A stretch of 64,000 bases of DNA from Candidatus Omnitrophota bacterium (GCA_020632535.1 JACKFJ010000004.1:41514-105513); one strand, 5' to 3'. Shown: positions 19,985 to 35,751, counted from the stretch's first letter. Notes: generated from the letters alone by a model not told the origin. Program-made: numbers and translations.

Positions 19985-20061
19985 TGGTCGGGAAGGTGGG
20001 ATTTGAACCCACGACCTCAACGTCCCGAACGTTGCGCGCTAGCCACCTGCGCTACTTCCCG
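19985..20061 (-). tRNA. tRNA-Pro (anticodon CGG)
   Basis: Minus strand folds as a cloverleaf: CGGGAAG TA GCGC AGGTGGCTA GCGC G CAACG TTCGGGA CGTTG AGGTC GTGGG TTCAAAT CCCAC CTTCCCG A CCA. It has a 7-bp acceptor stem, a TTC loop, anticodon CGG and an encoded CCA. Confidence 0.9.
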
Positions 20062-28398: not shown

Positions 28399-28431
28399 TA
28401 AAAAGAAAAATCCCGATTTGCTTTCGGGATA
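28399..28431 (-). terminator. Intrinsic terminator (expression platform of the FMN riboswitch)
   Basis: Minus strand ATCCCGA-aagcaaa-TCGGGAT followed by TTTTCTTTTT. It lies between the aptamer and the ribBA Shine-Dalgarno. Confidence 0.6.
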
Positions 28432-28493
28432 AAAATACAACGGCCTATTCTACGATGGAAGACACTTCCACTGCTGAATAAAAAAAATCCGTT

Positions 28494-28679
28494 GCTTTCT
28501 CCCATCTAGGCTCTTTACGCACCTCAAGAAACGAGGGACTATTGGCCCGGGAATCACACCCGATCTGCATCGCAACACATCCGCGACGCTCGTAGGCTCT
28601 CCTAAAATTATATTTAGGGATTACTACCAGCTGGGACTTACACCCATATCCGCACATGAAAGCCGGATTTCCCGAAAGC
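28494..28679 (-). promoter_or_regulatory. FMN riboswitch (RFN element) aptamer
   Basis: Minus strand shows the conserved RFN blocks. P1 is GCTTTC (28679..28674) paired with GAAAGC (28499..28494). Also present: GGGTGTAAGTCCCAGCTGGTAGTAA (cf. GGGUGAAAUUCCC.ACCGGCGGUA), GAGAGCCTACGAGC, GATCGGGTGTGATTCCCGGGCCAATAGT and TAAAGAGCCTAGATGGGAGAAAGC (cf. AAAGUCUGGAUGGGAGAAG). It is directly upstream of ribBA. Confidence 0.8.
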
Positions 28680-28689
28680 TAATCGAGTT

Positions 28690-28718
28690 AATATATTGGA
28701 AAAGATACCTATTGTCAA
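28690..28718 (-). promoter_or_regulatory. Sigma70-type promoter for the riboswitch/rib operon (TTGACA-N17-TATATT)
   Basis: Minus strand: TTGACA (28718..28713), 17-nt spacer, TATATT (28695..28690). It lies about 10 nt upstream of riboswitch P1. Confidence 0.55.
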
Positions 28719-28738: not shown

Positions 28739-29002
28739 TTACTTGGAGTTTTTCTTAAAAGCGGAGCTTTTATTACTTTTATCTGACATATAATGCTTGA
28801 CCCAACCTGCGGAGAACTTTGTAATCCAATCATCTGCTGCTTTATCAAAACCGATACTGTGACCAGCTTTTTCACTTTCAATCCATAAGTGTCTTTTAAT
28901 CTCTTCAACGACACGCGGGTCTTTAAGCAATGCCTCTTTACTCACCTTTGCCATACCAACTGCCCCACGATGATTAAATAACGCTGACAGGATTTTCTTC
29001 AT
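28739..29002 (-). CDS. Small hypothetical protein (87 aa) with KRHLWIESEKAGH motif
   Basis: Only sizeable ORF in this interval outside the riboswitch. Contains EEIKRHLWIESEKAGHSIGFDKAADDWI and a basic tail. No firm family assignment. The start is uncertain (ATG 29002 or internal MAKVSKE). Confidence 0.45.
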   Translation of the reverse strand: MKKILSALFNHRGAVGMAKVSKEALLKDPRVVEEIKRHLWIESEKAGHSIGFDKAADDWITKFSAGWVKHYMSDKSNKSSAFKKNSK

Positions 29003-29159
29003 GATTGTATTCTAAGCACAAACTGTTCAAAAATCAAGAGTTTCGAACGTATCTATTCTTTAACTTCACCAATAAAAATAGCAAGAATCAAATCAAAAAC
29101 GGTAAACGGTTTGCTTGGTTTTTGGTACGACATATGACTCCTTACGATAAACTTAGCCG

Positions 29160-29200
29160 AAAAATAAAAGCGCCCATTTCCGGATAACGGAAACAGGCGC
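29160..29200 (-). terminator. Intrinsic terminator on the minus strand, part of a terminator/antiterminator leader
   Basis: Minus strand GCGCCTGTTTCCG-ttat-CGGAAATGGGCGC (13 bp including two G-U pairs) followed by TTTTATTTTT. Confidence 0.6.
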
Positions 29201-29314
29201 ATCACATTTTCCGTTATTGGCAACTGGCTGCCCCTAACACCGGGGCCCTATAGTTTTGTGCCCTACCCTTGCGAGTAGTTTACCCTTTTCAATAATGTCT
29301 TTTAAGACTGTCAA

Positions 29315-29343
29315 AGTATTCCATGCGTTTTCACGATTGTCAA
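29315..29343 (-). promoter_or_regulatory. Candidate promoter for the leader RNA (TTGACA-N17-AATACT)
   Basis: Minus strand: TTGACA (29343..29338), 17-nt spacer, AATACT (29320..29315). The -10 is only moderate. Confidence 0.35.
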
Positions 29344-29422
29344 GATCACGACCTAAAACGAGTAATAAACTTTTTTATTGAACAAGACCAACTTTTCACC
29401 TATTGTAAATAAAAATACCGCT

Positions 29423-30223
29423 ATGAATTCCCTCGAAAAACTTGAAAACAACTCAATTTACATTATTCGCGAAGCTTACAGCCGCTTTCGCAATATCGCT
29501 CTTTTATGGTCTATCGGAAAAGACTCAACAACTCTTTTATGGCTTTGCCGTAAAGCGTTCTTTGGAAAAATCCCTTTCCCAATTTTACATATCGATACCA
29601 GTTACAAATTCCAAGCGATATATGACTTTCGCAAGAAATATGCCAAAGACTGGAATCTACAACTCATTATAGAAAAGAACGAACGTGCTTTAGCAAATGG
29701 CATGAACAACTCGCTTGGGAAATTCGAATGCTGCGATAGTTTAAAAACACAAACCCTCAAAAGGGCAGTCGAAAAACATCATTTCAAAGCCATCATTCTC
29801 GGCATACGCCGCGACGAACACGGCATTCGCGCCAAAGAAAGATTCTTTTCCACACGCAACAGTGATCATCGCTGGGATTACGGCAATCAAGCACCTGAAC
29901 TTTGGGATCTCTATCAAGCCCACTTAGAAAAAGATCAACACTTACGCGTTCATCCTTTACTTGGCTGGCGTGAAATAGATGTCTGGAATTATATTCAACA
30001 AGAAAAAATTCCCGTCGCTGATCTTTATTTTTCTAAAAATGGCCAGCGCTTTCGTTCCATCGGATGCGAACCGTGCTGCAGCCCAATCCCTTCGAAAGCA
30101 AATTCACTTGCAAAAATTATCGCAGAATTAAAGACAACAAAAATTGCTGAACGCAGTGGCCGCAGTCAAGACAAAGAAGACTCGTACAATATGCAAAAAC
30201 TGCGCAGTCTTGGATACATGTAG
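29423..30223 (+). CDS. cysD: Sulfate adenylyltransferase subunit 2 CysD
   Basis: MNSLEKLENNSIYIIREAYSRF aligns with the E. coli CysD N-terminus (LEAESIHIIREVAAEF). SIGKDS PP-loop present. I prefer ATG 29423 over the track TTG start at 29378. Confidence 0.9.
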   Translation: MNSLEKLENNSIYIIREAYSRFRNIALLWSIGKDSTTLLWLCRKAFFGKIPFPILHIDTSYKFQAIYDFRKKYAKDWNLQLIIEKNERALANGMNNSLGKFECCDSLKTQTLKRAVEKHHFKAIILGIRRDEHGIRAKERFFSTRNSDHRWDYGNQAPELWDLYQAHLEKDQHLRVHPLLGWREIDVWNYIQQEKIPVADLYFSKNGQRFRSIGCEPCCSPIPSKANSLAKIIAELKTTKIAERSGRSQDKEDSYNMQKLRSLGYM

Positions 30224-30225
30224 AG

Positions 30226-31476
30226 ATGACCATTAATACAGAACAACTCAAAATTGCCGTATGCGGTCATATTGATCACGGCAAATCTACACTCATCGGC
30301 CGCCTACTTTTAGATACCAGCTCTCTGCCCGACGAGAAAACAAATGAATTGAAAAAGATTGCAAAAGAATTCGGCGAAGAAACTCAACTGGCATATCTTT
30401 CAGATCAGCTCAAGGAAGAGCGCGAACGCAATATTACAATCGAAACAACACAAATATTTCTTAAAACTCATAAACGACCGTATTGCTTAATCGACACACC
30501 GGGGCATTTGGAATTTATTAAAAACATGCTCACCGGAGCTAGTCAAGCCGACGCAGCACTTGTTCTTGTTGATATTGAGGAAGGTATTGCTGATCAGACG
30601 CGACGCCACGCATATCTTCTCAAATTTCTTGCATTACCAAACATTATTGTCCTCGTTAATAAGATGGATTTGGTTAACTATGCGGAAAAAAAATTTAGAC
30701 AAATCGAGAACGAATTACGCTCTTTGTTTAACGAACTTGATTTAAAACCACTACATATTATTCCCATCAGCGCCAAGCAGGGCGAAAATATCAAAAAAAC
30801 GTCCCGGCGCATGTCTTGGTTTCACGGACCACATGTCATTAACGCTATTGATAACATCCCAAACACATTCGAAGGTACATTAAAGCAATCTTTACGTCTT
30901 CCTGTCCAAGACGTTTATCAGCATGACCACGAAGACATTATCGTCGGAAGAATTGCTTCCGGAGCACTTAATAAAAAGCAAAAAGTTTTTATTTATCCAC
31001 AAGCAACATTTACGACTATTAAAACCATAAAAGTTTTTGGAAAGGGAAAGCAGAGCGCACATGCTGGCGAATGTATTGGCCTGACATTAACCGATAACTT
31101 CCCCATTCGACGTGGCGATATTCTCTGCGCCGATGAATTCACACCGCAAACACAACGAAACTTTCGTAGCAATATTATTTGGCTAAGTTCAACAAAGCTG
31201 CAACAAGGACAAACCTTGCAGATCCAATGCGCGACGCAAACTTTTCACTGCAAAGTCATACAAATTCTAGAAGCAATTGATCCTAAAGATTTAAATATTT
31301 CTAAAGACAATGTTCTTAGCATTACAAAAAACCAAGCAGCACTGATTGAATTCACGATGTTATCGTCTGCCATTGTTGAAAAACACACGGACATTCCGGA
31401 ATTAGGTCGCTATACGATTGAAGATAATGACGGCCTTTTAGGAGCCGGAACTATTCTAGCCGTCAGACAAAACTAA
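30226..31476 (+). CDS. cysN: Sulfate adenylyltransferase subunit 1 CysN (GTPase only, no APS kinase domain)
   Basis: GHIDHGKSTLIGRLL, DTPGH and NKMD GTPase motifs; close to E. coli CysN by eye. At 416 aa it is too short for a fused CysC domain. It starts 2 nt after the cysD stop. Confidence 0.9.
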   Translation: MTINTEQLKIAVCGHIDHGKSTLIGRLLLDTSSLPDEKTNELKKIAKEFGEETQLAYLSDQLKEERERNITIETTQIFLKTHKRPYCLIDTPGHLEFIKNMLTGASQADAALVLVDIEEGIADQTRRHAYLLKFLALPNIIVLVNKMDLVNYAEKKFRQIENELRSLFNELDLKPLHIIPISAKQGENIKKTSRRMSWFHGPHVINAIDNIPNTFEGTLKQSLRLPVQDVYQHDHEDIIVGRIASGALNKKQKVFIYPQATFTTIKTIKVFGKGKQSAHAGECIGLTLTDNFPIRRGDILCADEFTPQTQRNFRSNIIWLSSTKLQQGQTLQIQCATQTFHCKVIQILEAIDPKDLNISKDNVLSITKNQAALIEFTMLSSAIVEKHTDIPELGRYTIEDNDGLLGAGTILAVRQN

Positions 31477-31477
31477 A

Positions 31478-32701
31478 ATGCAATATTTAAGCAAAACACG
31501 ACTTTCGCTTTGCCTTATCATACTTTTGAATTGTTCGCTTTCGGCACAAGCTGCTAAACCTTCGCCGACAGTTGCTGATTCCGAAAAATTCAAGACCATG
31601 ATGTCTCTTCCATACTTGCAAGGCTATTTCAAAGCACCACAGAAAACCAACGTCACTTTATATAATCGCGAACTAGCATATAAGGGCAACTCTTTATACT
31701 CATCGGGTGAATCTGCCATTGCTTACCTGATTGACATGAAGGGTCATGTCCTTCATCAATGGTCGTATGATTTACACAAAATCTGGCCGAACCAATCACT
31801 CAATGAAACTTCACCATTCTGGGAAAATGTTTATCTTTATCCTAACGGCGATTTGCTCGCTATTTATCACAATGGTGGTGTAATTAAAATTGACAAAGAT
31901 TCAAAGTTGCTCTGGTCATACGATTGCAATGCTCATCATGATCTTACCGTTGATAATCAAGGCAGGATTTATACTCTAACCAATGATTGGGTTAAACTTA
32001 AGAAAAATGTCCACATTACCGATAACTCAATCTTAATACTTTCGCCAGAAGGAAAATTCCTTAAGAAAATTTCTTTTTTACAAATGATGCATAAATCCAA
32101 GAATACTCACATTGAGCCGTTGTTAAAAAGGGTCGTCGGCATGGCTCTCAACGGTATGCATGATGTGTATCACACCAACACACTCAAAGTTTTTAACGGC
32201 CAATCTTCATCACGACAACCCGCAATTTTTAAAAAGGGCAACATTCTGATTTCGATGCTGACTCTTAGCACGATTGCAATCATCGATCCTGATTTGGAAG
32301 ACATTGTCTGGGTAGGTGGGCCACGATTATGGTCCGAGGGACAGCATAATGTGCAATTACTTGAAAATGGCCATATGCTCACATTTGATAATCACTATCA
32401 AGGAACGAAACAATCGCGCATTTTAGAATTCAATCCATTCGAAAGAATATCCATTTGGGAATATACTGATAAGGATTTTTATAGCGATACTCACGGATCA
32501 CAGGAAAGACTGCCGAATGGTAATACATTAATTATTGAAGCAAATAAAGGCCGCGCGTTTGAAATCACAAGAGACAAAAAAATAGTTTGGGAATTTCTTA
32601 ATCCTAATAAAACCGGCAAAGATAATGATTTGATCGCAACAATTTTTGTTATGTATCGCTTCGACTCTAGCTATACGTCCTCTTGGCTAAAATCACAGTA
32701 A
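31478..32701 (+). CDS. Secreted arylsulfotransferase (ASST)-like beta-propeller protein
   Basis: Signal peptide (LIILLNCSLSAQA/AKP). His-containing blocks AHHDLTVDNQGRIY, DVYHTNTLKVF and EGQHNVQLLENGHMLTFDNH resemble the ASST family as I recall it. ATG lies 1 nt after the cysN stop. Confidence 0.6.
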   Translation: MQYLSKTRLSLCLIILLNCSLSAQAAKPSPTVADSEKFKTMMSLPYLQGYFKAPQKTNVTLYNRELAYKGNSLYSSGESAIAYLIDMKGHVLHQWSYDLHKIWPNQSLNETSPFWENVYLYPNGDLLAIYHNGGVIKIDKDSKLLWSYDCNAHHDLTVDNQGRIYTLTNDWVKLKKNVHITDNSILILSPEGKFLKKISFLQMMHKSKNTHIEPLLKRVVGMALNGMHDVYHTNTLKVFNGQSSSRQPAIFKKGNILISMLTLSTIAIIDPDLEDIVWVGGPRLWSEGQHNVQLLENGHMLTFDNHYQGTKQSRILEFNPFERISIWEYTDKDFYSDTHGSQERLPNGNTLIIEANKGRAFEITRDKKIVWEFLNPNKTGKDNDLIATIFVMYRFDSSYTSSWLKSQ

Positions 32702-35256: not shown

Positions 35257-35751
35257 ATGTTGTATACTTTCGATACCATGAAAAGTATATTTCTATCATC
35301 CTTCTCTAATGGTCATACACCTCGAAAAGGCTTTACTCTCCTCGAAGTCATAATCGTTGTCGTAATTCTAGGAGTTCTTGCCAGCCTTGCGCTGCCCAAA
35401 TATAACAACATGGTTATTCAGGGCGAATGTCGTAGCGTCGAAACGAATATGATTGTCATCTATCAAGCTGTAAAACTTTTTAGAATGAGAAATCCAACAA
35501 ACTCATACCCCGGATCAGCAAACTTAGCCGCTATCAACGCTACCCTTGGCCTATCAATTGCGGATGATCCACTACATAATTATTTCATACCTGCAGGAAG
35601 CCCTTGGGATATGTCGGTCATTAGAGTTGATGGAAAATATCATTGCTACCTACAATTTCCCATTGTCGGCGTTTATGACCAACCCAATGTCTATTGCCAA
35701 TATTATTCTGGTTTCGGCAGCGGTGACGTATGTCCATCGATTGTCGGATAG
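35257..35751 (+). CDS. Type IV pilin / pseudopilin-like protein (prepilin-type N-terminal cleavage/methylation domain)
   Basis: RKG/FTLLEVIIVVVILGVLASLALPKY is a class III signal peptide (G-F cleavage site, Glu+5). Four Cys in the C-terminal half. The start is ATG 35257 or ATG 35278. Confidence 0.65.
   Translation: MLYTFDTMKSIFLSSFSNGHTPRKGFTLLEVIIVVVILGVLASLALPKYNNMVIQGECRSVETNMIVIYQAVKLFRMRNPTNSYPGSANLAAINATLGLSIADDPLHNYFIPAGSPWDMSVIRVDGKYHCYLQFPIVGVYDQPNVYCQYYSGFGSGDVCPSIVG

Follow-up and report, generated by a model that had tools for sequence, protein, structure and literature searches.

A c-di-GMP class I riboswitch upstream of a conserved 26-codon reading frame in a Candidatus Omnitrophota bacterium

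What kind of regulatory RNA lies on the minus strand between a promoter and a 26-codon open reading frame (ORF) in Candidatus Omnitrophota bacterium GCA_020632535.1? The stretch analysed here, hereafter the window, comprises 64,000 nt of one contig (JACKFJ010000004.1:41514-105513), and all positions are counted from its first nucleotide. A preliminary description, made from the sequence alone, had reported an unclassified structured leader at this site, with mutually exclusive terminator and antiterminator hairpins, possibly a novel riboswitch or attenuator. Our analysis indicates instead that this minus-strand leader is, in all likelihood, a canonical cyclic di-GMP (c-di-GMP) class I, or GEMM-I, riboswitch that most probably operates as a transcriptional OFF switch. 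The riboswitch class is a known one, and what is new is a member in an uncultured phylum; some residual novelty lies only in the dedicated, conserved short ORF (mini-ORF) that would be its target and in its cassette-like distribution.

Class and structure of the aptamer

The whole 64-kb window was scanned against Rfam 15, and two matches were above threshold, namely one tRNA and the c-di-GMP-I family RF01051. The latter was found at 29216..29294 on the minus strand with a score of 61.1 bits, compared to a gathering score (GA) of 35, an E-value of 1.7e-9 and full coverage of the model (1-87 of 87). In the related locus L070, the same model scored 55.9 bits, also above GA. Membership in the c-di-GMP-I family fits every feature that could be tested here. 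The preliminary description had matched the segment to no riboswitch consensus, c-di-GMP-I included, which proved false, and it had named a confident Rfam match to a known class as the result that would speak against a new one. The full Rfam scan yielded exactly such a match, and the candidate new riboswitch turns out to be an ordinary representative of a class that is among the best studied and for which an Rfam scan suffices as a means of detection. Its broader proposal of a riboswitch with a transcription-attenuating platform is nevertheless borne out by the Rfam match, by folding and by the mutually exclusive antiterminator and terminator helices. Moreover, the minus-strand promoter, the GC-rich hairpins, helices A and B, the U-tract, the Shine-Dalgarno (SD) sequence and the 26-codon ORF were all located where it had placed them. 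Conservation in relatives was also looked for, and the promoter, aptamer, terminator and mini-ORF are kept in five Omnitrophota relatives.

These relatives came from two sources, a one-genome-per-species scan for homologues of the gene encoding an 87-residue protein downstream of the leader, and the contigs carrying the closest homologues of that protein. The species scan gave 68 loci, all from Omnitrophota or from metagenome-assembled genomes (MAGs) labelled "uncultured Planctomycetales". When 53 of these loci were scanned with Rfam, the aptamer was found in L004 only, and the riboswitch therefore does not generally accompany the 87-residue protein family. The contigs of the closest protein homologues added L070, L073, L083 and L084. 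A metagenome scan with the invariant core of the platform, TAACGGAA-N2-22-GCCTGTTTCCGTTAT, returned only the L070 contig and no further diversity. Six distinct leader versions were compared (the window, L004, L070, L073, L083 and L084), all belonging to one lineage, and every one of them keeps the promoter, P1, P2, P3, the terminator with its U-tract and a short ORF. In the window, the promoter and the parts of the aptamer are as follows.

29315..29343, minus strand: sigma-70-type promoter TTGACA-N17-AATACT, 10 of 12 matches, with a TG ahead of the -10; conserved in relatives
29216..29294, minus strand: c-di-GMP-I (GEMM-I) aptamer, RF01051
29290..29295, minus strand: P1 5' strand UUAUUG, pairing with 29219..29214; P1 cells 95% paired across the six versions
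29214..29219, minus strand: P1 3' strand CAAUAA, sharing nucleotides with the 5' arm of helix A
29263..29278, minus strand: P2 hairpin CUACUC-GCAA-GGGUAG with a GNRA tetraloop, from Rfam, folding and relatives
29222..29255, minus strand: P3 hairpin with an A-G bulge (29229..29228) holding the G83 equivalent, from Rfam and folding
29284, minus strand: G20 equivalent, predicted to contact one c-di-GMP guanine; Rfam model column 11, G in six of six
29260, minus strand: C44 equivalent, the junction C in GGC; C in six of six
29257, minus strand: A47 equivalent, the predicted ligand-contacting adenine; A in six of six, at the column with G in the GGC-variant consensus
29220, minus strand: C92 equivalent, predicted to pair Watson-Crick with the second c-di-GMP guanine; C in six of six

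The -35 hexamer TTGACA and the GAATACTT block are unchanged in all six leaders, and the 156-nt leader folds better than shuffled versions of itself (z -4.4). Its GC-rich segment is made up of two hairpins on the minus strand, CUACUC-GCAA-GGGUAG (29278..29263) and GCCCC-GGUGUUA-GGGGC (29246..29230). The second is as it had been described, while the first, noted earlier as CTAC/GTAG, exists with the longer stem given here. P1 had been missed altogether. It pairs UUAUUG (29295..29290) with CAAUAA (29219..29214), the latter directly 3' of the C92 equivalent; its junction-proximal pairs are marked in the alignment of RF03167, and it links the aptamer to the expression platform. The P2 loop is of the GNRA type in all six versions, either GCAA or GUAA, and compensatory changes are seen in two of the six P2 pairs (U-A to C-G and C-G to U-A). 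P3 varies from 33 to 72 nt in the relatives, yet the hairpin always forms, with one compensatory change from A-U to G-C.

The ligand-contact positions can be read against Vc2 of Vibrio cholerae, the GEMM-I reference. In Vc2, G20 pairs with one guanine of c-di-GMP and C92 forms a Watson-Crick pair with the other, A47 also touches the ligand, and an interhelical C-G pair is universally conserved (PMC5888326, PMC4744006). By model alignment, the three ligand-contact positions correspond in the window to G 29284, A 29257 and C 29220, and the five independent relatives have the same nucleotides; the mapping of Rfam model columns to Vc2 numbering is our own reading of the consensus. The partners of the interhelical pair (Vc2 C44-G83) are C 29260 and G 29228 in all six versions, and a tertiary pairing between them is predicted. 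The window aptamer has in common with Vc2 the Rfam family, the three-helix junction, the equivalents of G20, A47 and C92, the junction C and the bulged G. In contrast to Vc2, its P2 loop is GCAA (GYAA) instead of GAAA, its P3 is short and has no 11-nt receptor, its platform consists of an explicit intrinsic terminator and an antiterminator, and its host is an uncultured Omnitrophota bacterium. The predicted ligand is c-di-GMP.

The helices are also supported by the comparison of the six sequences. Over the reliably aligned columns, 97.7% of the pair cells hold standard pairs, versus 36-50% when the partners are slid. P2 has two pairs in which both partners have changed, and P3 and the terminator have one each, four in total; the covariation score of 0.207 is above that of 500/500 shuffles, within the limited covariation power that six versions of one lineage afford, which is nil for P1. 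The distal part of P3 is out of register in the MAFFT alignment, and those pairs were excluded from the formal count.

Two other identities for the RNA were weighed against these results. That it is a novel, unclassified riboswitch or attenuator, as first proposed, is now scarcely credible: this reading drew on the failure to recognise any matching consensus and on a sequence that looks atypical by eye, with the usual GAAA tetraloop and 11-nt receptor missing, whereas the RF01051 match is full-length and above threshold and has all ligand-contact positions present. It is also quite improbable that a GEMM-I fold is used here for a different ligand, either 3',3'-cyclic GMP-AMP (cGAMP; the GEMM-Ib type) or the ligand of the orphan c-di-GMP-I-GGC variant, RF03167. 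Both of these have the overall fold and the clan CL00126 in common with the window aptamer, and GEMM-I aptamers of altered specificity are known (PMC7266159). Under permissive thresholds, Rfam clan competition prefers RF03167 for the window, with 58.3 bits and an E-value of 6.9e-13, and it does so at or above the GA of 59 in the relatives L004 (60.7 bits) and L073 (60.8 bits). However, the window score, though nearly at the threshold, is under it, and the junction column at which the two consensus lines differ (GCAAAg in RF01051, GCGAAg in RF03167), which we took as diagnostic of the GGC variant, holds an A in the window and in all five relatives, including those that score 60.7-60.8 bits. The GGC variant, with G at this junction column, was reportedly defined by Weinberg et al. 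in 2017. As for cGAMP, the change G20A moves GEMM-I binding towards this ligand (PMC7288161), but the equivalent position is G in six of six leaders, where the cGAMP binders have A. Identity as a GGC or a cGAMP variant was rejected on these two positions, the junction A and the G at position 20. The high score of RF03167 probably stems from its P1 and its short P3 without the 11-nt receptor, which fit these sequences.

Clan competition assigns the c-di-GMP-I-GGC label to L004:2115-2194 and L073:1169-1246, and also to L074 and L075 (60.7-60.8 bits, GA 59), despite the junction A. Automatic annotation would thus misname canonical c-di-GMP-I aptamers as the orphan GGC variant.

Expression platform and direction of switching

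The aptamer is followed by two alternative helices and by the signals for a short ORF.

29184..29217, minus strand: helix A, the predicted antiterminator, AUAACGGAAA with UUUCCGUUAU; -10.4 to -10.8 kcal/mol, the favoured nascent fold before the terminator 3' arm is made
29160..29200, minus strand: helix B, the terminator, with the U-tract UUUUAUUUUU; 13-bp stem, terminator cells 100% paired in the six relatives
29138..29143, minus strand: SD sequence AAGGAG; an SD-like purine run also precedes the ATG in the four relatives checked
29053..29133, minus strand: mini-ORF, 26 codons plus stop, MSYQKPSKPFTVFDLILAIFIGEVKE; conserved in the six versions

Helix A pairs 29217..29208 with 29193..29184 over 10 bp (-10.4 kcal/mol, z -3.3), and helix B pairs 29200..29188 with 29182..29170 over 13 bp, eight of which are G-C (-22.1 kcal/mol, z -6.6); for neither helix was any of 200 shuffles as good. 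With the U-tract directly 3' of it, helix B has the form of an intrinsic (rho-independent) terminator. Its stem and U-tract had been described correctly, with a loop of ttat that is in fact UUAUC. The two helices cannot coexist, as had been proposed, because both use UUUCCG (29193..29188). In addition, the 3' strand of P1 overlaps the 5' arm of helix A, and the 3' arm of helix A overlaps the 5' arm of the terminator. P1 is therefore expected to block helix A, and helix A to block the terminator, and from this chain an OFF switch is predicted, with c-di-GMP causing termination. The orientation, with the promoter upstream and the SD sequence and conserved ORF downstream, fits a switch on the minus strand.

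Folding of truncated transcripts is consistent with this logic. When the window transcript is ended just before the 3' arm of the terminator, it folds helix A and not P1 (-35.0 kcal/mol), and enforcing P1 costs 4.9 kcal/mol. In this model, the cost of 4.9 kcal/mol would be small beside the binding energy expected of a tight ligand. In five of the six leaders, transcripts ended at the same point form helix A, at -9 to -12 kcal/mol, and the cost of enforcing P1 is only 2.3-4.9 kcal/mol. All six leaders have a strong terminator with its U-tract, in which one compensatory and three one-sided changes are seen. Helix A was assessed by per-sequence folding and not by column-wise covariation. L084 keeps both alternative helices with other sequences, AAUGGGGAAA/UUUCCUCAUU for helix A and GCUUAUUUCCUC/GAGGGAAUAAGC for the terminator. 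L083 (784-926) has a weak helix A (-3.7 kcal/mol) and an 11-bp pairing of -16.4 kcal/mol between GGGCACAAAAC, a strand of the aptamer junction, and GUUUUGUGCC, where the 5' arm of the terminator begins. This pairing is predicted to act as a different antiterminator with the same outcome, and L083 would exemplify the turnover of an expression platform with its logic preserved.

In the proposed mechanism, transcription would start a few bases past the -10 (29320..29315), and the aptamer helices P1, P2 and P3 would be made first. When no c-di-GMP is present, the weak, 6-bp, A/U-rich P1 would fail to hold and its 3' strand would join helix A. Helix A would then occupy the UUUCCG core of the terminator 5' arm, allowing read-through into the 26-codon ORF and probably into the gene for the 87-residue protein. 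Binding of c-di-GMP at the three-helix junction (29284, 29257 and 29220) would stabilise P1, such that helix A loses half of its 5' arm. The 13-bp terminator would then form before the U-tract, and transcription would halt near 29160.

The same OFF logic is found in Cd1, where a c-di-GMP-I aptamer is followed by an intrinsic terminator and c-di-GMP binding promotes termination; the polarity here is a predicted one. Cd1, reportedly described by Sudarsan et al. in 2008, is said to lie upstream of a flagellar operon in Clostridioides difficile. Whereas Cd1 controls this large operon, the first gene controlled here would be a 26-codon ORF. More generally, terminator/antiterminator or sequester/antisequester pairs are the means by which class I riboswitches govern termination or initiation (PMC11218506). 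Bc1, from the Bacillus cereus group, has a c-di-GMP-I aptamer of type I and resembles the present leader in the rho-independent terminator of its expression platform; that platform, however, is long, contains two terminators and affects both transcription and translation (PMC11218506), whereas here there is one terminator in a compact platform of ~60 nt.

The mini-ORF is the first gene past the terminator. Its SD sequence AAGGAG (29143..29138) and its frame (29133..29053, including the stop) are as had been described, and the gene calls on the source contig miss it. Four versions have 26 codons, L083 has 23 and L084 has 27. In the four versions that were checked, the ATG follows an SD-like purine run at a distance of 5-9 nt, and its frame is the only one that stays open in every one of them. 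Two independent pairs of sequences differ 9/1/13 and 4/0/12 times at codon positions 1/2/3 (Fisher combined p 9e-5), and the ratios of non-synonymous to synonymous differences (pN/pS) in these pairs are 0.26 and 0.08. Because of this substitution pattern, the pN/pS values and the shared open frame, we judge the mini-ORF to be a real coding sequence under purifying selection.

Several observations weigh against a ligand-controlled OFF switch of this kind. In the full-length minimum-free-energy fold, the terminator is held with or without P1, and helix A can therefore act only kinetically; a 10-bp antiterminator facing a 13-bp terminator may leave little read-through. Helix A does not vary among four of the six versions and is register-shifted in L084, and hence has no strict column-wise covariation, while P1 has no compensatory change and is mismatched in the window and in both L070 and L083. 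P3 lacks the canonical 11-nt tetraloop receptor, the columns of which are deleted in the Rfam alignment; from the sequence, a helical GG/CC receptor for the GNRA loop is plausible. No GGDEF, EAL, HD-GYP or PilZ motifs were found in a scan of all ORFs of at least 150 residues in the 64-kb window, in which the sole match was a spurious EAL-like string in a PHP-domain protein. Finally, Bc1, a terminator-bearing c-di-GMP-I riboswitch, is unresponsive to c-di-GMP in vivo (PMC11218506).

Some of these points would also fit a c-di-GMP-I riboswitch of another polarity or another level of control, such as an ON switch, a terminator that is nearly constitutive and leaves a short stable RNA, or a translational device, which we regard as unlikely. 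In the full-length fold, the terminator prevails thermodynamically whatever P1 does, Bc1 is a precedent of a terminator-bearing leader locked OFF in vivo (PMC11218506), and a terminated transcript of ~150 nt could carry a role of its own. On the other hand, the overlap of P1, helix A and the terminator is the standard OFF arrangement, and it is kept in six diverged leaders, one of which has reinvented the antiterminator. An ON switch would need P1 and the terminator to compete directly, which does not occur, and control of translation is difficult to reconcile with an SD sequence that lies at least 17 nt downstream of the U-tract and in no conserved sequestering helix. Attenuation by the ribosome is a further alternative, in which the mini-ORF would be a leader peptide and no ligand-binding RNA would be involved. 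A short conserved ORF in a leader-like region upstream of another gene is what such a system would look like, but since the mini-ORF comes only after the terminator, its translation cannot affect termination there, and leader-peptide attenuation was rejected on this ground. Nor is there a second terminator-like site after the ORF; its amino acids appear to be under purifying selection (pN/pS 0.08-0.26), with no regulatory codon runs, and a conserved promoter sits between it and the next gene. Taken together, these features make the leader-peptide reading highly improbable, and the c-di-GMP OFF switch is retained as the preferred one.

A promoter-like site also occurs on the opposite strand, inside the aptamer and facing cysD (TTGCGA-16-AATAAT, 29269..29296, plus strand, 9 of 12 matches). 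It is probably due to chance, because five such sites were seen where about three are expected.

The encoded peptide, the downstream gene and the cassette

The peptides of the mini-ORF have a basic N-terminus followed by x-T-[LVM]-[LF]-[DE]-L-I-[IL]-x-[ILV]-[FV]-[IV]-G-[DE], and they resemble the N-terminus of prepilins, including KGFTLLEVIIVVVILG of a pilin-like gene in the window (35257..35751). With the Pfam N_methyl family PF07963, two of the six peptides scored 13.6 and 11.4 bits, where the cutoff is 21.2, and an NCBIfam scan of the six mini-ORF peptides gave no match. Membership of the prepilin-type family was rejected on account of the sub-cutoff scores and of the residues around the putative processing site, with P, A or S at -1, F, S or V at +1, and D or E at +5, where the type IV pilin (class III) signal calls for G, F and E, respectively. 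In contrast to proteins with the prepilin N-terminal methylation motif, the peptide stops 1-5 residues past the Gly and has no globular domain.

A speculative extension, to which we give only a small chance of being correct, is that a self-contained cassette of ~330 nt, acquired or lost whole in one Omnitrophota lineage, encodes a c-di-GMP-repressed, prepilin-like helix peptide of 23-27 residues, which would perhaps enter or jam type IV pilus or type II secretion assembly or the prepilin peptidase. If true, such a "headless mini-pilin" would tie low c-di-GMP to altered pilus function. To our knowledge, no c-di-GMP riboswitch has been described with a dedicated target peptide of the prepilin-like N-terminal helix kind.

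The pilin-like ORF of the window (35257..35751, plus strand) is full-length, with 164 residues and a canonical prepilin N-terminus, PRKGFTLLEVIIVVVILG, and is unlinked to the riboswitch. In L039 and L040, the sequence KKAFTLxEMIIVVII occurs, with Ala at -1.

Downstream of the mini-ORF lie a second promoter-like site and the gene for the 87-residue protein.

29009..29037, minus strand: second promoter-like site TTGATT-N17-TAGAAT, just upstream of the 87-residue ORF
28739..29002, minus strand: 87-residue ORF, from a family seemingly restricted to Omnitrophota

The interval from the mini-ORF to the 87-residue gene yielded no terminator-like site, and read-through from the riboswitch promoter therefore probably reaches the latter. 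The CTTGATTT core of the second promoter and the -10-like block downstream of it are conserved in relatives with and without the riboswitch cassette. A hypothetical protein encoded in a Candidatus Omnitrophica MAG has the same sequence as the 87-residue protein (100% identity), and every named hit of the family belongs to that phylum. The only domain similarity was to DUF4032 (PF13224), at 18.8 bits where 23.8 are required (E 0.0015), and it covered positions 124-161 of the 163 of the profile. AlphaFold predicts a helical-hairpin core with a predicted local distance difference test score (pLDDT) of about 90-95 for residues 20-70; a Foldseek search of this protein against the PDB returned nothing below an E-value of 3.8, and a profile search of PDB sequences gave no match.

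In the window, the -10 of the second promoter (TAGAAT, ending at 29009) is only 6 nt before the ATG of the 87-residue ORF, with no SD sequence, and an mRNA from this promoter would therefore be leaderless. The relatives have a 5' untranslated region of 40-90 nt with an SD sequence between the two. From this comparison, the window appears to carry a deletion between the second promoter and the ORF.

The promoter, riboswitch, terminator and mini-ORF form a block of ~330 nt that is missing from the close relatives L002, L005, L006, L007, L079-L082 and L085. These cassette-free relatives retain the flanking cysD promoter region and the second promoter. In L083, the cassette has a different upstream neighbour. 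A tree of the short gene, though noisy, splits the cassette-bearing loci into at least two groups, with cassette-free loci interleaved. The block comes and goes as one unit.

The MAGs of L002, L005, L008, L012-L014 and others are titled "uncultured Planctomycetales bacterium", whereas the other named hits of the protein family are all Omnitrophota; in L002 and L005, cysD is directly upstream of the locus, matching the arrangement in the window. The taxonomic label of these assemblies seems unreliable.

Neighbouring elements and implications

A probable flavin mononucleotide (FMN, or RFN) riboswitch element, RF00050, lies at 28490..28667 on the minus strand, directly downstream of the c-di-GMP-I locus and directly upstream of ribBA in ribBA-ribH-nusB. 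It matches the full-length model with 57.1 bits and an E-value of 5.2e-12, below the GA of 66.2, and the copy in the window goes undetected in a default Rfam scan; its orthologue in L070 and L072 reaches 67.4 bits, above this GA. The putative FMN leader has its own promoter-like site (28718..28690, minus strand) and a terminator (28430..28410, minus strand). The public gene calls place a 70-residue ORF at 28445..28657 on the minus strand (L001:3346-3558), wholly inside the FMN leader, and this call is almost certainly spurious.

On the other side of the riboswitch and divergent from it, 29378..32701 on the plus strand holds a sulfate-activation cluster of cysD and cysN, followed by an arylsulfotransferase-like gene (PF14269). 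A conserved promoter-like block of cysD adjoins the insertion point of the cassette. The tRNA that was the only other above-threshold Rfam match in the window is a tRNA-Pro (CGG) at 19985..20061 on the minus strand.

For Omnitrophota, an uncultured phylum in which few c-di-GMP effectors are known, the leader adds a predicted case of RNA regulation that responds to c-di-GMP. It also shows how an expression platform can evolve while its logic is kept, since one relative would have swapped the antiterminator for a pairing with the aptamer junction. Lastly, the direct target of the riboswitch would be a conserved ORF of 23-27 codons that appears to be under selection, possibly encoding a small protein tied to c-di-GMP physiology.

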